A DNA stretch of 47,244 nucleotides from Candidatus Woesearchaeota archaeon (lineage in GTDB: Archaea > Nanobdellota > Nanobdellia > Woesearchaeales > ARS49). The DNA is taken from assembly GCA_016188265.1 (NCBI GenBank), contig JACPID010000024.1:1-47244 (forward strand). The letters are read 5' to 3'. Both the position numbers and the translations under genes were made by a program. Positions 6,302-47,084 of the stretch are shown here, in pieces; positions within the stretch are counted from its first letter, which is position 1, and every line of letters starts with the position of its first letter. The notes below the pieces were generated by a model. It was given only the letters and a program-made list of their open reading frames with translations. It did not search any database and was not told the DNA's origin.

Positions 6302-7078
6302 ATGGTGAAAGAAATAGTAAGAGAGATTCCTGTAATAGAAGTATTTGAAGAATTTTTTCATGCGCGTAAAAAAATTATTGCACTACTTATTTTTTTCTTT
6401 AATTTATTTGCTTTTGGCATTATTGGTTATATCATAACTGAAAAAATCAGTCCTTTTCAAGCATTTGATTATACGGTTGATACTCTTATCTTTAAGGAGC
6501 TGGAATTATCTGATGCTGGAAAAACAATTCATACGCTGCTTCTCTTATTTGGCATTATTGTTTTATGGTTTACTGTTTGGACTTCTCTTGATATCTTTCT
6601 TGAGGGTCATTTTCATAAATATTTTTCTGAGGTGAGATTAATGGACAAAATCAAAAAACTTAAACAGCATTATATTCTCTGTGGCGGAGGAAGAGTAGGT
6701 GTACATGTAGCTATGGAGTTAAACAAAAAAAAAATTCCTTTTATAATTATTGAAAAAGACATTCATTTGATTCCTAATCTTAAGAAGAAAAAATTTTTAG
6801 TTTTACACGGAGATTCTTTAGAAGAAGAGATTCTTCTTGAAGCTGGTGTTGAAAAAGCAAAAGCGCTAATCAGTGTTTTATCTGAAACAGAGAAGAATAT
6901 TTTGGTAATTTTAACAGCTAAAGAAATAAATCCTAATCTTAAGATTTATGCTAGAGCGCATGGCGAACATCTTGTGAAAAAACTCAAACGAGCAGGAGCA
7001 GATTATGTCTTCCTTCCAGAAGTAATTTGTGCAGAGGATATTATGAAGAAAGTAGATAAAGAAGAACTTTCCAAATAA
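6302..7078 (+). CDS. MthK-like 2-TM channel protein with TrkA-N (RCK) domain; selectivity filter missing
   Basis: TM1 - pore-helix-like segment - TM2, then HYILCGGGRVG Rossmann motif, GDSLEEEILLEAG and AGADYV. No TVGYG. Confidence 0.85.
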   Translation: MVKEIVREIPVIEVFEEFFHARKKIIALLIFFFNLFAFGIIGYIITEKISPFQAFDYTVDTLIFKELELSDAGKTIHTLLLLFGIIVLWFTVWTSLDIFLEGHFHKYFSEVRLMDKIKKLKQHYILCGGGRVGVHVAMELNKKKIPFIIIEKDIHLIPNLKKKKFLVLHGDSLEEEILLEAGVEKAKALISVLSETEKNILVILTAKEINPNLKIYARAHGEHLVKKLKRAGADYVFLPEVICAEDIMKKVDKEELSK

Positions 7079-7103
7079 ACCCTTCTTACACAAATTTTAT
7101 TTT

Positions 7104-7192
7104 TAGTACGCGCCATAATTTGTAGAACACTCTTTATGGCGCGTACTATTTAGAAAACGAAAGTATTGTCTTATTATTTATTTCGTTTTCTA
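7104..7192. repeat. Two tandem perfect inverted repeats (15-bp and 12-bp stems) between convergent transcription units
   Basis: TAGTACGCGCCATAA 7104-7118 pairs with TTATGGCGCGTACTA 7134-7148. TAGAAAACGAAA 7151-7162 pairs with TTTCGTTTTCTA 7181-7192. Confidence 0.85.
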
Positions 7193-7335: not shown

Positions 7336-7388
7336 ATTGATGCTAATTTACTCGTCACTTTTAAAAATTTAGCGGTTGGTTTTTGTTA

Positions 7389-7472
7389 TGCAGCTGGCAG
7401 GATTCGAACCTGCGAAGGCACTAAGCCACTAGCTCCTGAAGCTAGCCCATTTGGCCACTCTGGCACAGCTGC
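7389..7472 (-). tRNA. tRNA-Leu(CAG)
   Basis: Acceptor GCAGCTG/CAGCTGC, discriminator A, anticodon arm CTAGC-TTCAGGA-GCTAG, long variable arm, T-arm GCAGG-TTCGAAT-CCTGC. No encoded CCA. Confidence 0.95.
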
Positions 7473-7492
7473 ATTAAAGAAATATATTATTT

Positions 7493-8275
7493 TTATTTTT
7501 TTAAATTCTTTGTTTTAAACTTCCATGAAGAATCTGTTTCTATTTTTGCTGTAATTAATTGTTTTCTTTCTATTTCTGAGTATTGTGCATCAAAAGAAAT
7601 AACTATTGGAATTGTTAAATTCGTGTTTAATAACTGAATATTTCCTTCATATACTTTGTAATTATGAGAAGACCAATTATTGATAAAAAACTCTCCGTGC
7701 CATTGATCCATTATTTTGCCAATTTTTTCTAAATTTGGGCCGTAAATTATTTTGTTTTTTTTTCTGCCTTCTGATCTTAATAAGCATTTAATATCACTTT
7801 CAAAACATGATACTGCATTTATATGTTTTTTAGCAGGTGTTTTTATATCTATATTTCTAGGTTCCCAAGCTTCTTTTTTGCTTAATTTGAAACTTTCTAA
7901 ATGCAATGCTAATTTTAATGTATAAATATCTTTTTTTGATGAAAATACATATGTTGTGCTATTATTTTCATCAATTGAGTTTATTAATGTATTTTTATAA
8001 AAATCAATTGCATCCTTTATTAACAACTGAATTCTGTTTTCAAGAGGCAGATCACGACGTTCATTATTCCAAAATTCCCGCGATTCTTGAAAAGATGAAT
8101 CGCCATATGTCTGCTTCAATTGTTTATATATAAATAATAATTCTTTTTTTCTTAAGTAATTATCAAAATTCCCTTGATTTGGGAATGTTAATAATCGCGC
8201 AAATGCTTCAAAAGTATTTATTTTTGCCATAATCATATGTGATTTATTTTTTAGTATTTTAACTTTTATGAACAC
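7493..8275 (-). CDS. Hypothetical protein
   Basis: 260-aa ORF with no recognisable motif. True start may be a few codons downstream (MIMAK). Confidence 0.6.
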   Translation of the reverse strand: MFIKVKILKNKSHMIMAKINTFEAFARLLTFPNQGNFDNYLRKKELLFIYKQLKQTYGDSSFQESREFWNNERRDLPLENRIQLLIKDAIDFYKNTLINSIDENNSTTYVFSSKKDIYTLKLALHLESFKLSKKEAWEPRNIDIKTPAKKHINAVSCFESDIKCLLRSEGRKKNKIIYGPNLEKIGKIMDQWHGEFFINNWSSHNYKVYEGNIQLLNTNLTIPIVISFDAQYSEIERKQLITAKIETDSSWKFKTKNLKK

Positions 8276-8375: not shown

Positions 8376-8585
8376 GTGGTTTTTATGGCAGAAAAAAATG
8401 AACAAATAGGATTTCATAAAGGAGCATTAACAACTTTGGCTAATGAAAGAAATGAATTGCTGAAAATAGTTAATATTGTAGAACAATTAATGCAGGCACA
8501 CATAAAAGCACTAAAAGATCTTGGTGTTGATTTAGAAAAAGAAGCAAAAAAAGAAAAAAGCAAAAAACTTGAAGAAAAAGTATAG
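8376..8585 (+). CDS. Small helical/coiled-coil hypothetical protein
   Basis: EQIGFHKGALTTLANERNELLKIV, amphipathic. AGGTGG SD suggests ATG at about 8385. Lies 11 nt upstream of the NTase gene. Confidence 0.75.
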   Translation: MVFMAEKNEQIGFHKGALTTLANERNELLKIVNIVEQLMQAHIKALKDLGVDLEKEAKKEKSKKLEEKV

Positions 8586-8596
8586 AGAGGATATTT

Positions 8597-10480
8597 ATGG
8601 CAGGTAAAAAAAAAGAAGAAAAACAAAGGTATGAAAAAGAAGAAGCAAAAACAATGCAGTTACCAGAAGGCATGCCTTTACCTCCTCAAATACCTCCAGA
8701 ATTAAAAGAAAAACTTGACAAAATAAAACAAAAACTAGAAAAATTTTCAAAAGAAGTTGTTAGTAAATTTGAAAAATATATTGTAGGGGTGGCTCTGCTT
8801 CCTCCGCCAAATGTTCATCCAGGAATGACTCCTGAGGAATTAGCAAAAGCACAGCAAGAAAATAAAGATAAAATTCATGCACTTGTTCTTATTGATGATA
8901 GCGAACCTTCAAAGATAAGTAAATTTGAACTTAAAGAAAAGATTAGTGATATTGTTGATAAAACTGCCAAAGAAATTGATCCAAATATTACTCCACAAAT
9001 AGTATTGCTTGGTGAATTATGGCAAAATTGTTATGATGGCAAATATGAAGTTATGCAATTAATAGCGCTTTCTGCACCAGTTTATGACACTGGGATGTTA
9101 TCTGCAATAAAAATAGCAGAATTACATAAAAGCATGGTTTTGAAAAAATTTGAAAAATATATAGTTGCTTATATTCTTGCTGGCAGTCTTGTGCAAGGTA
9201 AAGCAACTAAAGATAGTGATATTGATGTATTTATTGTTATTGACGATACTGATGTCAAAAAAATGACGCGAGTTGAATTAAAAGACAAACTAAGGCAAAT
9301 AATAATCAGCATGGGATTTCAAGCTGGAGAAATTACTGGCATTAGAAATAAGCTTAATGTGCAGGTTTATATTTTAACAGATTTCTGGGAAAGTGTAAAA
9401 GAAGCTCATCCAGTAATTTTCACTTTCTTGAGAGATGGTGTTCCGTTTTTTGACAGGGGGATTTTCATGCCTTGGAAACAGCTTCTTAAAATGGGGCGTA
9501 TAAGGCCAAGTCCTGAAGCAATTGATATGTATATGAGTTCTGGTGAACAAATAATTGATCGTATAAAATTCAAAATAAGAGATATTGGAATGGAAGATTT
9601 GTTTTATTCAATTTTAACGCCATCACAGGCAGCTCTTATGATGTGGGGATTTCCTCCGCCAACACCTAAGGAAACGCCTGAAGTTATGAGGGATATTTTT
9701 GTTAAAAAAGAAAAACTATTGAGTGAAGATGACATTAAAATGCTGGAACACAATATTCAAGTTAGAAAAGAAATTGAGCATGGCACAAAAAAAGAACTTT
9801 CTGGAAAAGAAATGGATGAACTTTTAGAAAATGCTCAAAAATACTTAAAAAGAATCAGAAAATTATTCACGCAAATTGAAAAAATAAAAGAAGAAGAAAC
9901 TCTTTTGAATGTGTATGATACTGTTACAACAATTATGCGTGATATTCTTGTAAGAGAAAATGTTGAAAAAGTAGTTGAAGCTGATCTTTTGCATGAATTT
10001 GAAAATAAATTAGTAAGCACTGGAAAAATTCCTGCTAAATATTTAAGGCAGATCCATGCGGTATTTGATACAAAAAAACATTATGATGCAGGCAAATTAA
10101 CTAAAACAGAAGTAGAAAAAGCAAGAAAAGAAGCAGGAGAATTAATAAGATTCTTAGTGGAGTATCTGCAACGTGAGCGTGGCAAAGAATTAGCAAGAAC
10201 AAAAATTAAAGTAAAACACGGAGAAAAATATGGTGAAGTAACTATTTTAGATAATCAAGCTTTTATTATCAGAGATGTTGATGCTGAAGAAAAAGAAATA
10301 GAAAAAGCGCTTGTGGAAAAAGATGGTTCAATAGGCGTAGCTTCTAAATCATCATATCAAGAATTTGAACAATCATTGGCTAAAGTTAAAATACCTTCTA
10401 AGGTTTTTATTAAAGAGCCAGTGTTTGAAAGTTTAAAAAAAATATTTGGCAAAGATGTTGAAGTTTTAGTGCACGTATGA
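8597..10480 (+). CDS. Duplicated Pol-beta-type (MNT) nucleotidyltransferase fused to tandem HEPN-like helical domains
   Basis: Second NTase repeat has intact AGSLVQGKATKDSDIDVFIVIDD; the first repeat lacks GS/DxD. Helical region contains RKEIEH (R-X4-H). GAGG SD. Confidence 0.75.
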   Translation: MAGKKKEEKQRYEKEEAKTMQLPEGMPLPPQIPPELKEKLDKIKQKLEKFSKEVVSKFEKYIVGVALLPPPNVHPGMTPEELAKAQQENKDKIHALVLIDDSEPSKISKFELKEKISDIVDKTAKEIDPNITPQIVLLGELWQNCYDGKYEVMQLIALSAPVYDTGMLSAIKIAELHKSMVLKKFEKYIVAYILAGSLVQGKATKDSDIDVFIVIDDTDVKKMTRVELKDKLRQIIISMGFQAGEITGIRNKLNVQVYILTDFWESVKEAHPVIFTFLRDGVPFFDRGIFMPWKQLLKMGRIRPSPEAIDMYMSSGEQIIDRIKFKIRDIGMEDLFYSILTPSQAALMMWGFPPPTPKETPEVMRDIFVKKEKLLSEDDIKMLEHNIQVRKEIEHGTKKELSGKEMDELLENAQKYLKRIRKLFTQIEKIKEEETLLNVYDTVTTIMRDILVRENVEKVVEADLLHEFENKLVSTGKIPAKYLRQIHAVFDTKKHYDAGKLTKTEVEKARKEAGELIRFLVEYLQRERGKELARTKIKVKHGEKYGEVTILDNQAFIIRDVDAEEKEIEKALVEKDGSIGVASKSSYQEFEQSLAKVKIPSKVFIKEPVFESLKKIFGKDVEVLVHV

Positions 10481-11016
10481 GAATATTAGTAGATATGGAT
10501 GATGTTATCTCTGACTTTGATAAAGGGTTTGAGCTGGCATGGAAAAAACATTGCCTTGATAAGCCGTACATTCCAGTTGAGAATAGAACAACATTTTACA
10601 TTCAAGAATTTTATCCTGAACATTTACAGCCATTAGTTAGAGAAGTGTTTTCTACACCTGGCTTTTATCTTTCATTACCGCCAATTCTAGGAGGATTAGA
10701 AGCAATGGTTGAAATGAAAAGATTAGGGCATGATGTTTTTATTTGTACCACGCCATTATCAGATTACGAGCATTGTGTATTAGAGAAATATAAATGGATA
10801 GAAAAAAATTTAGGCAAAAAATGGACTGAAAAACTCATACTCACAAAAGATAAAACAGTAGTTACTGGAGCTTACTTAATTGATGATAAACCAGAAATTA
10901 CTGGAGCGGCAATCCCTGTTTGGGAGCACATCCTTTATGATAAATCATATAATAAACAAATAAAAAAGAAAAGACTAACATGGCAGGAGGATTGGAAAAA
11001 AATTTTAGGAATTTAA
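10477..11016 (+). CDS. 5'(3')-deoxyribonucleotidase (NT5C, HAD family)
   Basis: ILVDMDDVISDF, ICTTP, EKYKWI, LTKDKT and LIDDKP motifs. ATGA overlap with the NTase gene. Confidence 0.9.
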   Translation: MRILVDMDDVISDFDKGFELAWKKHCLDKPYIPVENRTTFYIQEFYPEHLQPLVREVFSTPGFYLSLPPILGGLEAMVEMKRLGHDVFICTTPLSDYEHCVLEKYKWIEKNLGKKWTEKLILTKDKTVVTGAYLIDDKPEITGAAIPVWEHILYDKSYNKQIKKKRLTWQEDWKKILGI

Positions 11017-13864: not shown

Positions 13865-14266
13865 TTAGTCAAGTTTAATTCTTTTAATACCTTTTATTTT
13901 ATCGAAATCAGAATCATCACTAACTATTTTACTTAATTTGAGTTGTTTCATGCACGCCAAGTGGAATGCATCGCGTGGTTTGAGATTGAATATCTCAATA
14001 AATTCTAAAGCGTCAAGAGGAATTAGCGCTGAAACTTCACGAACTTCTAAGTTTGGCATAAAATAAACGTCCTCTATTGTTTTTCTAAGTAAATCTGCCC
14101 TGCTGTTTTTTCTCAGAACCCACATAACTTCGTCAATAACTAGTACAGAAGTGAACGCTAATAATTTTCCTTCTACAATCTCTTTTTGAATTAGTCTCGC
14201 GTTAACTCCTTTTTTGGTTTGATCTAAAAGTGCAAAAATGAAAAAATTCGCATCAAGATAAATCAT
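13865..14266 (-). CDS. vapC: VapC-type PIN-domain toxin
   Basis: IYLDANFF, VIDEV, PRDAFHLA and VSDDSDFD acidic PIN motifs. Confidence 0.92.
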   Translation of the reverse strand: MIYLDANFFIFALLDQTKKGVNARLIQKEIVEGKLLAFTSVLVIDEVMWVLRKNSRADLLRKTIEDVYFMPNLEVREVSALIPLDALEFIEIFNLKPRDAFHLACMKQLKLSKIVSDDSDFDKIKGIKRIKLD

Positions 14267-14268
14267 TT

Positions 14269-14514
14269 TTAGAAAATCTCTTCGTAAAGTGCATCTCCGT
14301 AAATAAATTCTTTAGTTACATTAGCGCCTTCTTTCTTAGAAATCTCCTCCCATCTTCTCAAAATATCATCTCCGCTCGAAGGTATGACTCTTAATTCTTT
14401 TTTATCTAATTCCAATAGAACTGTTTTATTTTTAGTTATTCCTAGATTCTCACGTATGATCTTTGGTATAACTATCTGTCCTCTCGCACCAACTTTAGTT
14501 TTAAACTGAAGCAT
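14269..14514 (-). CDS. vapB: AbrB/MazE/SpoVT-family antitoxin
   Basis: KVGARGQIVIPKIIRENLGI swapped-hairpin motif. Lies 2 nt upstream of the PIN gene. Confidence 0.9.
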   Translation of the reverse strand: MLQFKTKVGARGQIVIPKIIRENLGITKNKTVLLELDKKELRVIPSSGDDILRRWEEISKKEGANVTKEFIYGDALYEEIF

Positions 14515-40731: not shown

Positions 40732-43158
40732 TTATTTCAACATTTTTATCGGTTTTTTCCACAAATTCCATAATTTTCTGGAAAATATTAATGCCAATAA
40801 TAATTCAAGAATAAATAGCCACATGTTAAACGTGCATAAAATGTTTATTAAAATCAGCAATAATAATAAAATTATTGATGCACTTACAATTGTGAAAAAG
40901 CTTTTGTGTCTAGCAGAATAATTTTTAACATATCTATTGACGCTGAGAGTTATTATTAACAATAATATAAATGCAGTTAATAAACCCCATTTTAATTCTG
41001 AAGAACAATAAAATTCTTTTCTAAAAATAGTAGCGCAATCTGTTGGACAGCTAATTGCATCTTCATCAACACCGCAATAACCATTACCACAACCGCATAT
41101 TTTATCAGGCGCTTTTTCTGAAGCAACATGCTTTCCAACTATAACAAGGCTTTCTTTTGGGCAAAAAGGCATACTTAATTCAAAATATTGCTGGTTGCCG
41201 AGCAATGCTCTGTCTGTTATATCTTTTCTTACTTCTTTTGAAACAATTTTTTCCAGAATATTGCGAGCAATTGGGTGCTCAACAATTAATGTATGAGGAA
41301 CATCTAATTCCCAATAATTATCACAGCGATTATTAACATAAATTCCGCCAACATTTTGCGCACTTTTAACTGGGACAATACCATCATTTTTTTCTTTTAC
41401 ACCTAATAATTTTGTAAATTCATAAGGCTGTATTCCTGCAATTACTGAATATTCTATTCCACTAACACGATCAACAAGCTTTCCTTTTATTAATTCTTGA
41501 ACCACCTGCGTATTAATGTCAAACCATCCTGGAATTTTACTATTGACTAAAATATTAAGCAAATCATTAAAAATACCTTCGTCAACAACTCCGTTATTAG
41601 GTACAGAAACAAGAATTACTTTTCTTATTTTATTCAGAAATGATAACTTGTTTTTTTCTGCATATTTAAGAGCTTCTTGAATAATTATTCCACCTAAACT
41701 ATGGCCAACAAAATAAATATTTTCAAACTCATCATTATTTTTTTCAAGATTATCTGCTAAATTTTGTGCATTTTCTTCAATAGGCTGCTTGTAAGGGTAG
41801 CCGAAAGTCCATGCTTGAAATGGCTGTTGAGTTTGCCTAATATCATCAATAATATCCTGATAAGTTGCTGGTGAAACCCCTAATCCATGAACAAGAATAA
41901 CAGCATCTTTTGTTCCTGATAATGAATCATAAACACGTTCCAAAGCAGGTTTTTTACAATTAACACAAATCTGGCCAAATAATGCAAAAATATTTTCATC
42001 AATTTCTAAATTAACATTTGTTGAAAATGTAAATGTTTGTTTATCAATTGATCCGCCAAGATAAACCCAAGCTTCATCAATAAGTGAATAAGCGCTAACA
42101 GAATCAGGATCAATGCTTGGATCTGAAATATAAGGAAGAACAATTCTTGCACTGGCAGATTGATCACTGGCAACAATAACCGGAGCGCCTAATATTTTTA
42201 GTGAAGGATTTTTTGGTTGTTTTAATGTTTTTGTTGGTGATGAAATTCTAATATTAACAGGTTGAGTTGTATTTGCAACAGTTAAAATAAGCCTTCCAGC
42301 AGAAACAGAATCGCCTGAATTTAACAATTCTTTTTTAGTAGGTATGTTTATAGGAGCTAAACTTAAATTAAAATACTCTTCTTGCCTATACACTTTTATA
42401 ATATCTTCACCGCAGCTTAATGTTTCAACAGGCATAACATCTAAAGGTGTACAAATAGAAGTATTGCATCTTAATACTTGAATATCCAAATAATTTTGAG
42501 GTACAGAAATTCTGGTATTAAAACTCATATCTTTTGAACATTTAGCTTCAAAAGGAGGAATAATAACATCATAATCTTTAGGTATTTTAATGCCAAATTT
42601 TGTTTCTCGAAGAATAATTCTTTCATTTTCAGAAATATTCATGCAAGCAAATGGGTTAAGTTCAAAATAATGTTCAGGAATTGCAAATAATGAATAAGCT
42701 TTTGTTCCTAATGCGCGCGCAGTATTAAAAAAACCTTCACCTTCAATAACAATTCTACCTTCAGCCAATGCAGATTCAACAACTTTAACAGGATTAGAAG
42801 CTGTTAAAATACTAGTTAAAGTTCTATCGCTTAAACTAACAGCCATTGTTGGCGAAATATAACCTTTTTCAACAACATCAATTACTCTTCCATCTTTAAT
42901 TGTAACACCAAAAATAAATTCTTCATCTTTAGCTTGAATCTGAACATTCATTTTTTGATCGCCAAGCAATGGCTTAAGTGATTTAGGGACTATTAAAAAT
43001 TCAATTTGAGATTTAAGAATAGGAAACATTTTCACAAACTCTTTAGAAGTGATTTTTTCAGGACACTTGCCAAAACATTGATCAACAACAGGAACAGCAT
43101 CTGCAAAAACAAAAGGAATAATAATTAAAATACATAAAACTATCACGCTCTTTTTCAT
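40732..43158 (-). CDS. Secreted, C-terminally membrane-anchored alpha/beta hydrolase (lipase/PGAP1-like) with N-terminal SCP2-like domain
   Basis: Signal peptide; VILVHGL, VGHSLGG, NDGIV and PH motifs; CGNGYC...CPTDC module; three C-terminal TM helices. Confidence 0.8.
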   Translation of the reverse strand: MKKSVIVLCILIIIPFVFADAVPVVDQCFGKCPEKITSKEFVKMFPILKSQIEFLIVPKSLKPLLGDQKMNVQIQAKDEEFIFGVTIKDGRVIDVVEKGYISPTMAVSLSDRTLTSILTASNPVKVVESALAEGRIVIEGEGFFNTARALGTKAYSLFAIPEHYFELNPFACMNISENERIILRETKFGIKIPKDYDVIIPPFEAKCSKDMSFNTRISVPQNYLDIQVLRCNTSICTPLDVMPVETLSCGEDIIKVYRQEEYFNLSLAPINIPTKKELLNSGDSVSAGRLILTVANTTQPVNIRISSPTKTLKQPKNPSLKILGAPVIVASDQSASARIVLPYISDPSIDPDSVSAYSLIDEAWVYLGGSIDKQTFTFSTNVNLEIDENIFALFGQICVNCKKPALERVYDSLSGTKDAVILVHGLGVSPATYQDIIDDIRQTQQPFQAWTFGYPYKQPIEENAQNLADNLEKNNDEFENIYFVGHSLGGIIIQEALKYAEKNKLSFLNKIRKVILVSVPNNGVVDEGIFNDLLNILVNSKIPGWFDINTQVVQELIKGKLVDRVSGIEYSVIAGIQPYEFTKLLGVKEKNDGIVPVKSAQNVGGIYVNNRCDNYWELDVPHTLIVEHPIARNILEKIVSKEVRKDITDRALLGNQQYFELSMPFCPKESLVIVGKHVASEKAPDKICGCGNGYCGVDEDAISCPTDCATIFRKEFYCSSELKWGLLTAFILLLIITLSVNRYVKNYSARHKSFFTIVSASIILLLLLILINILCTFNMWLFILELLLALIFSRKLWNLWKKPIKMLK

Positions 43159-43212
43159 CTATTTATTACATACAGATAAACTATATAAAGATAATGGGTT
43201 ATTCTTATTTTC

Positions 43213-43887
43213 ATGCAATTATCTGTAGTTATAGTTAATTATTATTCAAAAGAATTGCCACATTGTTTAAAGACATTGAAAAACAGCGTTCCTCTTGAAT
43301 CAGAAATTTTTATTGTTAATAATTCACCTGAAAAACTTAATTTTGAAGGCGTTACCATAATTCAAAACAATAAAAATATTGGTTATGCAAAAGCTTGCAA
43401 TAAAGGAATTGATGCTGCTAAAGGAAGATACATACTTATTCTAAATCCCGATGTTATTGTTGGAGAATCAACAATAAAGTCTTCCATAAGATTTATGGAT
43501 GAAAATTCTGAAGTAAATATTTGCGGAATAAAATTATTAGAAGAAAATGGAAGTGTACAAGAATCTGCAAGAAATTTTCCTAAATTTTTAGAACTTGTTA
43601 GTAGAAGGTTGTTCAAAAATAATACACTGCAAACCACAAACCATAAACTACCAACTAAAGTAGAGTGGGTGTCTGGAGCTTTTATGCTAATGCGAGGAAA
43701 ACATTATTTTGATGAAAAATTTTTCATGTACTTTGAAGATGTTGATTTGTGCAGAACAGTTGGAAATGTATGGTATTGCCCTTATGCTAGAGCAATGCAT
43801 AAAACAGGTTATGGAAGCAAGAAAAATTTAAGATTATTTTTAGAGCATGTTAAAAGTATGATGTATTATTTTCTGAAGTGGCATTAA
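43213..43887 (+). CDS. GT2 glycosyltransferase (WbbL-like)
   Basis: SVVIVNY, NIGYAKACNKG, LNPD, VSGAFML and FDEKFFMYFEDVDLC motifs. Confidence 0.92.
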   Translation: MQLSVVIVNYYSKELPHCLKTLKNSVPLESEIFIVNNSPEKLNFEGVTIIQNNKNIGYAKACNKGIDAAKGRYILILNPDVIVGESTIKSSIRFMDENSEVNICGIKLLEENGSVQESARNFPKFLELVSRRLFKNNTLQTTNHKLPTKVEWVSGAFMLMRGKHYFDEKFFMYFEDVDLCRTVGNVWYCPYARAMHKTGYGSKKNLRLFLEHVKSMMYYFLKWH

Positions 43888-43902
43888 AAGAAAGTTTATA
43901 AA
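43888..43902 (+). promoter_or_regulatory. BRE/TATA promoter of aRF1, probably leaderless
   Basis: AAGAAAG-TTTATAAA ends 24 nt before ATG 43927. No SD. Confidence 0.6.
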
Positions 43903-43926
43903 CCATCAACTTATCAATCTATTTTT

Positions 43927-45036
43927 ATGGCATTAACATCATATCAAAAATTTCAGTTAAAGAAAATAATTAAAGAACTTGAACAGTATAAAGCTAGGCA
44001 TACTGAATTAGTTAGTGTGTATGTTCCTGCAGGGTATGATTTAATCAAGATAATTCAGCATTTAAGTGAAGAACAAGGTACAGCAACTAATATTAAATCT
44101 AGTTCTACAAGAAATAATGTTATTGATGCTCTAGAAAAAATGATACAACATTTAAGAATTGTAGAAAGAACTCCTGTTAATGGTTTAGCGGTATTTTCTG
44201 GCAATGTAGCTGAAAGAGAAGGCCAAAGTGATGTCAGAGTGTGGAGTGTTGAACCTCCAGCTCCACTAAATATTCGTATTTATCGTTGCGATAAAACATT
44301 TTTATTAGACATATTGCAAGATATGATGACGATTAAAGAAGTGTATGGTCTTGTTGTTATGGATGCCCGAGATGCACATCTTGCATTATTAAAAGGCAAA
44401 TCAATACAGTTCCTTCAAAAAACTCATTCTCATGTTCCTGGAAAGATGAAAGCTGGTGGCCAGAGCTCTGCACGCTTCCAAGCAAATCGCGCTCTTGCTG
44501 TTAAAGATCATCTAAAAAAAGTTGCTGAATACATGAAAGAACAATTTCTAAATTTAGAAGGATTAAAAGGAATTCTTCTCGGAGGCCCAGGGCCTGTTAA
44601 ATATGAATTATACGAAAGCGGGTTTATAACTGGAGATGTTAAAAAGAAAATTCTAGCAATAAAAGATCTATCTTACACAGAAGAATTTGGCTTGCAAGAA
44701 CTTATTGATAAATGCCAAGATGTACTTGCTCAAGAAGAAATTGCTGATGAAAAAAAAATAATGAATAAATTCTTAGAATTGCTTGCCACAAAACCGAGTA
44801 TTGTAGTTTATGGTGAAAAAGATGTTATGAAAGTCCTTGAAATGGGAGCTGCTGAAACAATACTGGTGTCTGAAATTGTTGATATTGAAAAAATTGAGAT
44901 AATAGAAAATAGAGCAAAAGAATTTGGAACAGAAGTAAAAATAATTTCTACTGAAACAAGAGAAGGGGCTCAATTAAAAGAAATTACTGGATTTGGCGCT
45001 ATTTTAAGATATGAAGTTAATGTAGAAGCATTATAG
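43927..45036 (+). CDS. prf1: Peptide chain release factor aRF1
   Basis: NIKS, YRCDKTF, GGQSSARF and GFGAILRY motifs. Confidence 0.96.
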   Translation: MALTSYQKFQLKKIIKELEQYKARHTELVSVYVPAGYDLIKIIQHLSEEQGTATNIKSSSTRNNVIDALEKMIQHLRIVERTPVNGLAVFSGNVAEREGQSDVRVWSVEPPAPLNIRIYRCDKTFLLDILQDMMTIKEVYGLVVMDARDAHLALLKGKSIQFLQKTHSHVPGKMKAGGQSSARFQANRALAVKDHLKKVAEYMKEQFLNLEGLKGILLGGPGPVKYELYESGFITGDVKKKILAIKDLSYTEEFGLQELIDKCQDVLAQEEIADEKKIMNKFLELLATKPSIVVYGEKDVMKVLEMGAAETILVSEIVDIEKIEIIENRAKEFGTEVKIISTETREGAQLKEITGFGAILRYEVNVEAL

Positions 45037-45043
45037 TTTTTTT

Positions 45044-45901
45044 TTAGTTTAATCTAGCGATAATTTTGCCTTTTTTTAATATTCTTACTACACCACTTTC
45101 AGATAGAACAACTGCAATTGCATCACATTTTTTAGTTATAGCAGCACAGCATCTATGTTTTGTTCCAAAACCATCAGGTATTTCAACATCAGAAGTATCT
45201 AAATCTAAGTAAGTTCCTGCACTTTGAATTCTTCCATTGCGCTCTATAATAAATGCTCCATCTAATTGAGAAAATTCTTTAACAGTTTCTTTTATTTCAG
45301 GATCTTGAATTTTGCATTTTTCTTCAGAATAACCTTGAAATGGGTTAAAAATAAGTTGCCTGCAAAACTGCTTAAGTTCATTATAATCGCCAACAACAAA
45401 AGATGTTCCTACTTTTTTGCCTTCACGCCCTTCTTGAACTAATTCAAAAGCAATATTAATTAAACTTTCAAAAGCATCTGAATCAATATTTTCAGTTATT
45501 TTATGAGTGCTTACTTTAAAGAAAACATCATCAATATCAAGAATAAACATCAAACCTGAAAACCCAACACCAAGTGTTTCATCTGCTACGCAAATAACTC
45601 TATCGCCTTTGCTGATGATTTTTTTTGTAACAAAATCACTTAATAAATCCTTAATTGGTTTTAAAGAATCCATTTTTTTAAGTAATGTTGTCTCGTGGAT
45701 TTGGTCTAGATAAGCGCCAGTATCAGTTCGTTTAAAAACAACAGCTCTTACATCAGTGCTTAAGGATTCTTCTGCAGAAATAATTTCAACTTCTTTACGC
45801 GTAAGAGTTACAATAATGTTGGCTTTAATATTGCGAGCAATAGTGCCGACTGCTTGGCTTATGCTCTCTTGAATGGGGTTTGATGGCAAAGATGGTATCA
45901 T
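45044..45901 (-). CDS. Diadenylate cyclase (DisA_N/DAC domain) with N-terminal pyruvate-kinase-C-like domain (DacZ-like)
   Basis: EGREGKKVGT, QLIFNPF, LDGAF, GTKHR and VLSESG motifs. Start MIPSL at 45901. Confidence 0.85.
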   Translation of the reverse strand: MIPSLPSNPIQESISQAVGTIARNIKANIIVTLTRKEVEIISAEESLSTDVRAVVFKRTDTGAYLDQIHETTLLKKMDSLKPIKDLLSDFVTKKIISKGDRVICVADETLGVGFSGLMFILDIDDVFFKVSTHKITENIDSDAFESLINIAFELVQEGREGKKVGTSFVVGDYNELKQFCRQLIFNPFQGYSEEKCKIQDPEIKETVKEFSQLDGAFIIERNGRIQSAGTYLDLDTSDVEIPDGFGTKHRCCAAITKKCDAIAVVLSESGVVRILKKGKIIARLN

Positions 45902-45983
45902 ACTCTTTTTAATACTGATAAAAAAATGAAGATAGAACTTATTAAATCTTTTGGCACAATAATCCATAAATACTGATTATTCT

Positions 45984-46667
45984 ATGTTTTATCTCATGAA
46001 ATTTATTTATGAAGCTGCAAATCGTTTGAAAATTCAAGAAAAGTATAATTTTTTAGTGAAGTATTCTGGGCGTGTTAAAGGATTCAGGGCATTTGTTAAA
46101 AAAAAAGACATTAATTTGTCATTTACTTTAAGTAAAAAATGGCATGATGTAAGTGAAGAAATAAAAATAGGGCTTGTACAAGAACTTTTAGAAAAAATTC
46201 TTCATTTAGAAAAAATAAAAACAATGAATAAGGATTTATACTATTCTTTTCTTAAAAATGCCCATCTTGCTATTCCAAAAACAAAAACAAATCCATTGCT
46301 TGAGACATTATTTGAAAAATTAAACCAGCAATATTTTGACAGTTTATTGGAAAAACCCAATTTTGGCATTTCAGCTTCCAGCAGAACCCTTGGATGCTAT
46401 GAATACGGCACAGACACAATAACAATAACAAAGCATCTATTTCAACATCCTGAATTACTTGAATATGTTCTATACCATGAAATGTTGCATAAAAAACATA
46501 AATTTTCAAGCAGTAAAGAAAGATCAAGACATCATTCTAAAGCATTTAGAGATGATGAAAAAAAGTTTCAAAATGCAGAATATTATGAAAAAGAATTAGA
46601 GCAGGCAGCAAGAAGTTTTCCTAAAAAAAATTATAGCAATCTTTTTAAATCAAACCATTTCTCTTGA
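45984..46667 (+). CDS. SprT-like/YgjP zinc metallopeptidase
   Basis: FEKLNQQYF, LGCY, YVLYHEMLH and HHSKAF motifs. Confidence 0.8.
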   Translation: MFYLMKFIYEAANRLKIQEKYNFLVKYSGRVKGFRAFVKKKDINLSFTLSKKWHDVSEEIKIGLVQELLEKILHLEKIKTMNKDLYYSFLKNAHLAIPKTKTNPLLETLFEKLNQQYFDSLLEKPNFGISASSRTLGCYEYGTDTITITKHLFQHPELLEYVLYHEMLHKKHKFSSSKERSRHHSKAFRDDEKKFQNAEYYEKELEQAARSFPKKNYSNLFKSNHFS

Positions 46668-46682
46668 GTGAAGGTGATATGT

Positions 46683-47084
46683 TTGACAACAAAATTAGTT
46701 GCTGCAGGAAGTATTAAAGAAGGTAGTTTTATAGTTGTAGATGGTGCAGCTTGTAAGGTAGCAGAGGCTACTCATTCAAAATCTGGAAAGCACGGTAGTG
46801 CAAAAATGCGTTTTATCGCAATAGGGGTTTTAGATAACAAAAAAAGAGATATAGTTATTCCTGCATCAGATAATATTGAAGTTCCACTGATTGAGAAAAA
46901 AAGCGCCCAAGTATTATCTGTATCAGGAAATACTGCAAATGTTATGGATATTGAGAGTTATGAAACCTTTGATCTTAATATTCCAGAAGAATTAAAAGAT
47001 CAGGTTATTGAAGGATGCCAAGTATTATACTGGGTTATACTTGATGAAAAAGTTATGAAGCAAGTTAAATCTGGAAGTGAATAA
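46683..47084 (+). CDS. eif5a: Translation factor aIF5A
   Basis: Hypusine loop SKSGKHGSAK. AGGTGA SD before in-frame TTG 46683. Confidence 0.95.
   Translation: MTTKLVAAGSIKEGSFIVVDGAACKVAEATHSKSGKHGSAKMRFIAIGVLDNKKRDIVIPASDNIEVPLIEKKSAQVLSVSGNTANVMDIESYETFDLNIPEELKDQVIEGCQVLYWVILDEKVMKQVKSGSE

Follow-up and report, generated by a model that had tools for sequence, protein, structure and literature searches.

A nucleotidyltransferase-HEPN protein conserved across the Nanobdellota, possibly the large subunit of a two-paralogue nucleotide-transferring enzyme

The 627-aa protein encoded at 8597..10480 (+ strand) of the window, a 47,244-nucleotide stretch from a Candidatus Woesearchaeota archaeon, is the product of a core gene of the Nanobdellota: 298 of 301 genomes have it, as a long or a mid-length form. 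It has a short paralogue, a 268-aa protein joining a nucleotidyltransferase (NTase) to a HEPN domain, in about 146 of 151 genomes (in G000 at C18:11671-12477). The conserved system probably consists of these long and short paralogues, and not of the three-gene operon flagged in the initial annotation. The best explanation, to which we give a probability of roughly 45%, is that the long form is the large subunit of a long/short heterodimer that attaches a nucleotide to a protein or small molecule, in a reversible housekeeping modification rather than in RNA cutting. The HEPN bundle of each subunit would lend a lysine (and a glutamate) to the ATP site of its partner, and the remaining domains of the long form (a dead NTase, a second HEPN and a C-terminal domain) may serve as a scaffold or in substrate binding. 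Removal of the nucleotide would fall to an endonuclease-IV-like TIM barrel whose gene immediately precedes the short one.

It is very rare for a gene of unknown function to persist in nearly all genomes of a phylum that reaches down to 0.5 Mb. The long form is near-universal and single-copy, with 54-72% identity within the order. No relatives were found in the collections of viral contigs, phages and plasmids that were searched. The suggestion that the protein is domesticated is supported. There is no island in the sequence composition of the window. None of the NCBIfam models matches the 627-aa protein over its cut-off, PADLOC returns generic MNT matches only, and the six matches found for shorter relatives of one divergent long form were mostly uninformative. 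Outside the order, the two paralogous genes lie within 10 kb of each other in 20 of 74 genomes (hand count).

How is the long form built? An internal duplication had been proposed, with the order NTase-NTase-HEPN-HEPN. BLASTP self-comparison detects no internal repeats, but comparison of profiles supports the duplication of both parts: residues 36-166 align with residues 167-300 (hhalign probability 99.1, E 5e-19; reversed control 0.2), and residues 431-533 with residues 303-430 (probability 97.0, E 1e-10; reversed control 2.8). The four-part order therefore stands, and a fifth domain had been overlooked. This C-terminal beta-meander domain (10196..10477, + strand, residues 534-627) is modelled with a pLDDT of 86.9. 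It has no Foldseek match at E<=0.001, its best structural comparison (Z 4.1) is level with unrelated rows, and no clear relative was found by sequence, Foldseek, VIA or Atlas, an absence that does not prove a new fold. In Aenigmarchaeota-type and Nanohaloarchaeota proteins, a second HEPN copy occurs unaccompanied by the dead NTase, which indicates that the two internal repeats did not arise in one event.

The first NTase copy (8702..9094, + strand, residues 36-166) is dead: LLPP occupies the place of LAGS in the second copy, both catalytic aspartates are gone, and the GS..DxD motif is missing from this copy in 172 of 172 long forms, as had been read from the single protein. Its mean identity is 55% in close forms and 35% in distant ones. 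The intact NTase (9095..9496, + strand, residues 167-300) is the best conserved domain (83% in close and 64% in distant forms) and matches Pfam PF18765 and PF01909 above cut-off. Its GSX10DXD motif lies in a pol-beta fold at residues 196-210, MNT structures match it at Z 8-9.5, and G196, S197, D208, D210 and Q256 are invariant in all 180 long and mid-length forms. A third carboxylate is needed for 3'-OH extension in pol-beta enzymes. The following strand of the long form carries no third carboxylate, with N (or H) at position 254 and Q at 256; an acid stands at 254 in 3 of 180 forms, the register being taken from sequence. In MntA, D71 binds the second Mg. Short forms have T or N at the Q256 position in 53 of 57 cases, and because of this change their site may differ or be inactive.

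The HEPN bundle (9503..9886, + strand, residues 303-430) bears out the fold proposed for it. Residues 305-426 match AF0298 (2hsb), a class II (PF05168-type) HEPN, with Z 15.1 and rmsd 2.4 over 120 aligned residues, and other HEPN entries follow at Z 11-12. The profile of the bundle also finds 2hsb (E 6.6e-6), with H395 facing the Y of REESDY. The degenerate second copy (9887..10195, + strand, residues 431-533) is assigned to HEPN by profile comparison alone and is without a conserved motif; one of 172 long forms has R-x4-6-H there. In the window, the two hexapeptides singled out earlier are at the positions given for them, RKEIEH at 9764-9781 and TKKHYD at 10070-10087.

Is the protein an RNase? 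The initial annotation took RKEIEH as an R-X4-H motif, and conservation does not uphold this. In the long forms K391, E394 and H395 are each found in 171 of 172 cases, and R390 in 106 of 172. The arginine is present in 102 of 102 close relatives and in none of 8 mid-length forms; among the 70 long forms outside the order, it is kept in 4 and replaced by Y, F or W in 65. Overall, R-x4-6-H occurs in 109 of 172 long and 11 of 57 short forms. The residue after H395 is G, so that there is no RX4HXY. Conservation of K-x-x-E-H and not of the HEPN arginine argues against a canonical RNase. Class II HEPN, the class of AF0298, is reported to lack the RNase motif, and HEPN domains fused to MNT are typically without RNase residues (PMC3710099). 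Loss of the arginine does not in itself abolish the prospect of RNase activity, because a Legionella HEPN protein cuts RNA despite a missing R/H motif (PMC11586414).

One alternative is an RNA cut-and-mend enzyme, in which a composite, non-canonical HEPN RNase, with K and H drawn from the long and short forms, would cleave RNA and the NTase would tail the ends during the maturation or decay of rRNA or tRNA. The HEPN fold, the arginine of close relatives and the persistence of H395, whose equivalent is found in 47 of 57 short forms, are consistent with such an enzyme. So are ribosomal neighbours in other orders: within the 1.4 kb that follow the gene, eL33 is encoded in 41 of 70 long loci and in 7 of 8 mid-length loci, and uL16 in 33 of 70 long loci. 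However, these neighbours are absent from the 101 own-order loci and may be mere old gene order, the arginine is replaced outside the order and R-x4-6-H is scarce in short forms, the third carboxylate for 3'-OH extension is missing, and G000 carries a separate CCA-adding enzyme (C22:41352-41711). We regard RNA cutting and mending as unlikely. The long form is no stand-in for the CCA-adding enzyme either, since it has no PF09249.

A further alternative is a fixed toxin-antitoxin module, in which the NTase would modify its own or its partner's HEPN and so keep an RNase off, with release under stress and dormancy between hosts. The exact GSX10DXD of MntA is present, H395 stands at the class II acceptor-tyrosine position and is Tyr in a few relatives, and a guess of this kind is made in PMC6393860. 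Against it, the gene is near-universal, single-copy and well conserved, relatives are absent from the mobile-element collections searched, RX4HXY is missing, the MntA model scores 25.4 bits against a cut-off of 60, and protein abundance in Nanoarchaeum equitans is housekeeping-like. It is thus a very improbable account.

The heterodimer and the completion of its sites in trans are proposed from the motif pattern, from fusions and from complex prediction. The best whole-chain fold matches are KNTase/ANT enzymes, and in KNTase (kanamycin nucleotidyltransferase), Glu145 and Lys149 of the helical domain of the other subunit touch the alpha-phosphate (PMC4631478). The initial annotation saw a one-chain pseudo-dimer; the duplicated anatomy is real, and the likely partner that it overlooked is the near-universal short paralogue encoded elsewhere. 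Fourteen Nanohaloarchaeota-type proteins fuse two such cores in one chain. In all 14, the half with the intact NTase is without K391, while the half with the dead NTase retains K391 and E394 (14/14); this reciprocal loss of the lysine counts for in-trans completion, and is probably one evolutionary event. The fusion is not demonstrably one of long and short forms, because in a quick tree (130 of 132 rows) the two halves join each other (support 93, with a long-branch warning). No locus for this fusion type was found in a metagenome scan. H395 is kept in both halves (14 of 14 and 12 of 14); with its retention in short forms, this also fits a composite HEPN-HEPN site.

Prediction of the complex lends the pairing weak support, with a score of 0.53 for long plus short and 0.00 for the best of three controls; at least 78% of contacts recur between runs, and the pLDDT of the partner is at least 78. 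The prediction was run on our own alignments, and its positive outcome may stem from a resemblance to KNTase or HEPN dimers of solved structure. Solved pairs pass the score mark in 116 of 157 cases and mismatched pairs in 2 of 215; passes at <=0.60 account for only 18 of the 157 solved pairs and for both mismatches. A score in this range is more often wrong than right unless the pair is likely beforehand, which tempers the case for the heterodimer. The TPR-fused and extra-domain relatives count against it: 3 of 12 retain the NTase motif but are without K391 and E394. Both classes are expressed in N. equitans: NEQ050 (540 aa), which corresponds to the long form in size class, is found at about the level of cysteinyl-tRNA synthetase, and NEQ362 (256 aa, same arCOG), which corresponds to the short form, at a lower level (PMC3149612), the correspondence being by length and annotation only. 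Spectral counts of long and short are 3- to 9-fold apart there, which speaks against a strict 1:1 complex.

What remains of the operon in the window? The open reading frames at 8376-8585, 8597-10480 and 10477-11016 all exist, with 11 nt between the first two and an ATGA overlap between the last two. The first had been read as a 69-aa helical ORF from 8376. It probably starts at ATG 8385 instead (8385..8585, + strand, about 66 aa), because GTG 8376 falls inside a GGTGG ribosome-binding-like site. A sigma-70 promoter scan of the window gave chance-level results, and the sigma-70 model does not fit archaea. The third gene (10477..11016, + strand) encodes an NT5C 5'(3')-nucleotidase (Pfam PF06941, E 8e-18), which had been proposed as the off-switch of a system with the one-chain enzyme and the small protein as its partner. 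The tight spacing of the three genes favours such a system, as does a small gene directly upstream of the long gene in G058 and G104. Gene order largely refutes it. Among 169 other loci with >=600 bp downstream, NT5C adjoins the long gene in none, and only 52 of 151 genomes carry it at all, which rules it out as a partner: it is a chance neighbour, outside the conserved system. The small protein is matched in 128 of 151 genomes and lies <=1.2 kb upstream of the long gene in 26 of 101 close loci, but in none of the 70 loci outside the order. The usual product encoded between the small and long genes is a 270-aa HExxH protein, for which there is no tblastn match in G000. No Pfam family matches the small protein over its cut-off, and its matches are to unnamed Nanobdellota clusters only. 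The three-gene system thus has next to no credibility.

The gene for the TIM barrel assigned a removing role in the heterodimer reading immediately precedes the short gene in 21 of 27 loci from other orders and in 8 of 30 own-order loci. The same protein would degrade the signal if the pair were instead a HalB-like synthase that constitutively makes a nucleotide or oligonucleotide messenger, whose readers would be the neighbouring protein with CBS domains or further core proteins. When the short-form profile is compared with PDB sequences, HalB ranks second (E 6.5e-4, in pieces covering both domains), and it is also among the fold matches; in 47 of 101 close loci, the long gene is followed within 1.4 kb by one for a CBS protein; and at locus L231 a TPR-fused relative precedes a metallophosphoesterase and a 5'-nucleotidase. 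Yet the arrangement at L231 is known from that one locus, the long form reaches 13.6 bits with the HalB model, whose cut-off is 190, and no conserved effector or channel gene is seen beside either paralogue. A signal synthase is accordingly improbable, about as much so as RNA cutting and mending.

If the heterodimer reading is true, a module of the toxin-antitoxin type has turned into a core enzyme, which could reveal a process specific to host-dependent archaea. A broader picture, which we consider decidedly speculative and rather unlikely, is that of a lineage-wide reversible nucleotidylation switch in nano-sized DPANN, with none in free-living archaea. The shared-site heterodimer would write the mark, possibly via His395, which occupies the former acceptor-Tyr position. 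The core target might be the ribosome or a conserved 530-aa helical protein, for example, and the TIM barrel would erase the mark. The cycle would gate host-attached growth versus dormancy, and some bacteria would have borrowed the long subunit under a TPR sensor.

The family itself has been noticed before. Makarova et al. (2019) list DPANN cluster cls.004259 (NEQ050; arCOG01204) as uncharacterised, with a one-line annotation, on a priority list (PMC6393860); as described in its relevant passages, it is an MNT fused to HEPN, restricted to DPANN, in a housekeeping context and of unknown function, and the window protein is likewise a DPANN-wide MNT-HEPN fusion in such a context. This agrees with the earlier view that the protein is uncharacterised. 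The passages on cls.004259 are silent on the dead NTase, the second HEPN, the C-terminal domain, the paralogue pair and the motif pattern. In the literature searched, which covered little subscription text and few bioRxiv supplements or ftp tables that could bear on novelty, no description of the anatomy, motif test or heterodimer model was found beyond that paper. A one-line annotation now becomes a biochemically testable proposal.

Among characterised systems, Type VII HepT/MntA (class I and II) shares GSX10DXD and the HEPN fold, with AF0298 of class II as the nearest relative in fold. The window protein differs in being a single 627-aa chain and not two small adjacent genes, in having no RX4HXY, and in belonging to a family that is not patchy and is absent from the mobile collections searched. 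Hailong HalB joins an NTase to a helical domain and weakly resembles the short form in sequence over its full length, but the score lies far under the family cut-off; HalB is a patchy defence gene, and no HalA-like neighbour was seen here. In GlnE and GlnD, repeated NTase and helical-bundle units serve reversible protein modification. The long form resembles them in its repeated units, with weak fold matches to 1v4a and 3k7d, whereas its order is NTase-NTase-HEPN-HEPN and its first NTase is dead. The best whole-chain fold matches are KNTase/ANT(4') and LinB, which combine an NTase with a HEPN-like bundle in one chain and share their sites between subunits, with Lys/Glu supplied by the partner; identity is 12-15%, and rmsd 6-9 A over two domains. 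These homodimers modify drugs, belong to the accessory gene pool and have a third carboxylate, whereas the window protein is encoded by a core gene, is predicted to form a heterodimer and carries extra dead domains.

The three open reading frames of the initial annotation, the 11-nt gap and ATGA overlap between them and the motifs described in them all lie where they were placed; for the small ORF, 8385 is the probable start. The internal duplication proposed for the 627-aa protein (8597-10480, plus strand) is borne out by profile comparison against reversed controls: the two nucleotidyltransferase (NTase) copies align with each other at a probability of 99.1 (0.2 for the control) and the two helical copies at 97.0 (2.8). 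In an AlphaFold model (mean pLDDT 80), residues 305-426 match HEPN structures (2hsb, Z 15.1, rmsd 2.4), as had been predicted, and the second NTase copy matches MNT structures. The relative placement of the domains in this model is unsettled because pTM is low (0.52). A fifth domain, residues 534-627, is well folded when modelled alone (pLDDT 86.9), and structure comparison found no clear structural relative for it.

Elsewhere in the window, the minus strand carries tRNA-Leu(CAG) (7388-7473), followed by an AT-rich 260-aa ORF (7493-8275) with no Pfam or NCBIfam match, and a gene pair that by eye is AbrB-like and PIN-like (13865-14514), a probable ordinary toxin-antitoxin module. On contig C4 of genome G000 (43106-46855), a 1249-aa elongation factor 2 has, by eye, a long intein-like insertion in its GTPase motif.

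Has this family been described before? PMC6393860 records the MNT-HEPN fusion cls.004259/NEQ050 from 36 of 67 DPANN genomes, where its context is of the housekeeping kind; its authors regard it as a probable toxin-antitoxin module whose role is important but unknown. Our assignment to cls.004259/NEQ050 is based on the architecture, the range and the length class rather than on comparison with the named NEQ050 sequence itself. A literature search found no other description of the family, and the supplement of PMC6393860 gave no matches. New here are the division of the protein into five domains, the poor conservation of the RNase motif, a pair of paralogues present in nearly every genome, reciprocal motif loss and TPR-fused forms that are probably borrowed.

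Going by the names of its closest protein matches, the host is Woesearchaeota-like. All 301 Nanobdellota genomes searched have a match to the 627-aa protein, with a best E below 1e-60 in 289 (read from the table). The other 12 comprise one divergent 540-aa long form, seven mid forms (350-380 aa, NTase and HEPN only), one fragment at the end of a contig and three drafts, 95-100% complete, showing the short paralogue only; in total, 298 of 301 have a long or mid form. Two unpublished genomes (G243, G244) are counted in the distribution, motif and neighbour figures, and no claim hangs on them. The short paralogue (268 aa; G000 C18:11671-12477) has one NTase and one HEPN, and the best match is of this type in 146 of 151 genomes (read from the table). 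Judging by named relatives, the family also reaches Aenigmarchaeota, as NTase-HEPN-HEPN, and Nanohaloarchaeota, where two cores are fused in one chain (14 clusters). A TPR array precedes the long form in nine representatives, one labelled Phycisphaerae, and one TPR-less long form is labelled Planctomycetes, both unchecked metagenome labels. No relatives were found in the collections of viral contigs, plasmids and phages.

Several variants were also seen. Relatives P0192, P0195 and P0204 have an apparent extra dead NTase copy ahead of the usual two. Genomes G183 (loci L205, L206) and G092 (L203, L204) each have three members: long, mid-type and short. At L202 (G300 C9:20194-21994) the long gene is split over two frames (403 + 270 aa) by a frameshift or assembly error. 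Records titled Methanosarcinales or Aenigmatarchaeota (L034, L044, L049, L083, L084 and others) contain long forms 60-65% identical; these titles may be wrong, since the five records checked are 0.8-2.0 Mb genomes and four of them have a strong short-form match.

The motif alignment covered long (172), mid (8) and short (57) forms; a frameshifted long form and three fragmentary sequences were set aside. G196, S197, D208 and D210 do not vary among long and mid forms, and 56 or 57 of the 57 short forms retain them; the strand that usually bears the third carboxylate has N/H254 and Q256. The RNase motif R-X4-H, from which an RNA-cleaving activity had been proposed, is not conserved across orders: R390 is present in 102/102 close relatives, 4/70 other-order long forms and 0/8 mid forms, while K391, E394 and H395 each stay in 171 of 172 long forms. 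Lack of R-X4-H conservation in homologues was one of the grounds on which the initial annotation said its reading would fall. The nearest HEPN in profile comparison is the class II AF0298, where H395 stands opposite the Tyr of REESDY. According to PMC7641770, the RNase motif is missing from class II HEPNs, which retain a Tyr that may be adenylylated; MNT-fused HEPNs are typically without RNase residues (PMC3710099). However, a Legionella HEPN cleaves RNA despite missing the R/H pair, according to PMC11586414. RNA processing and synthesis of a signal are two readings that we consider unlikely, and equally so.

The gene neighbourhood does not bear out the proposed three-gene system. The NT5C nucleotidase gene (10477-11016, plus strand), suggested as the off-switch of a nucleotide signal, occurs in 52 of 151 genomes; of 179 loci examined, 169 others extend 600 bp or more downstream, and in none of these does it adjoin the long gene. 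The gene for the small protein also belongs to the core (match in 128 of 151 genomes); it precedes the long gene in 26 of 101 close loci and in none of 70 other-order loci. A 270-aa HExxH protein normally stands between the small and long genes; it has a Gly/Tyr/Ser-rich N-terminus (L010:682-1485 and similar), separates both genes in about 30 loci and gave no tblastn match in G000. Among other-order loci, which are the best 30 matches plus hand-picked ones and not a random sample, eL33 is downstream of the long gene in 41/70 and uL16 in 33/70; eL33 also follows seven of eight mid forms, and a CBS protein follows the long gene in 47 of 101 close relatives. Tandem sets of three or four 170-190-aa paralogues that have no Pfam match (G000 C15:43289-44729; L046, L069-L071, L094, L101, L102, L111) occur close to the long gene at 19 of 110 loci. 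One metagenome locus (L231:579-8042) has a TPR-fused long form, then a calcineurin-like phosphoesterase, then a TPR-bearing 5'-nucleotidase.

By hand count, 20 of 74 genomes have the long or mid gene within 10 kb of the short gene. In 21/27 other-order and 8/30 own-order loci, the gene directly before the short one encodes an endonuclease-IV-like TIM barrel. This protein of about 600 aa (L191:1769-3613; in G000 on C7, around 6352-7122) contains a large helical insert as well as E, D and H residues that are conserved and of metal type, and is a candidate eraser. It is often preceded by a 530-aa helical protein present in 99 of 101 genomes. In G000 this protein (534 aa, no Pfam match; C18:9940-11544, minus strand, L032:3941-5545) is encoded divergently from the short paralogue; in other orders it precedes the TIM barrel and the short gene. 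It is a candidate target or scaffold.

The supplement of PMC3149612 gives spectral counts for N. equitans: 90 and 241 for the 540-aa NEQ050, or 49 and 139 when normalised, which is near the values of cysteinyl-tRNA synthetase (normalised 58 and 145), and 5 and 34 for the 256-aa NEQ362 (normalised 6 and 41). These values agree with a housekeeping role and disagree with a strict 1:1 ratio.

Our preferred reading, with a probability of roughly 0.45, is that long and short forms would pair as a heterodimer with sites shared between subunits and nucleotidylate a protein or small molecule, the TIM barrel being the likely eraser of the mark. According to PMC4631478, the ATP site of KNTase and LinB lies between the NTase of one subunit and the helical bundle of the other, and in KNTase the partner's bundle supplies Glu145 and Lys149. 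In all 14 two-core fusions K391 is gone from the intact-NTase half, and the dead-NTase half retains K391 and E394; judged from sequence, this reciprocal loss fits a KNTase-like shared site and is probably one evolutionary event. A quick tree joins the two halves to one another with a support of 93 and a long-branch warning, so the fusions need not be long plus short. Both K391 and E394 are lost in 3 of 12 TPR-fused or extra-domain relatives. The long form (residues 30-535) folded with the short form scores 0.53 against 0.00 for the best of three controls, which is weak support, with at least 78% contact agreement and partner pLDDT of at least 78. Of 157 solved pairs 116 pass the complex mark, as do 2 of 215 mismatched ones; only 18 of the 157 solved pairs, but both of these mismatches, pass it with a score of 0.60 or under. 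The pass seen here may stem from resemblance to dimers already solved. Hailong HalB is weakly related, the family scoring far under the HalB family cut-off; the best whole-chain fold matches are KNTase/LinB-type enzymes.
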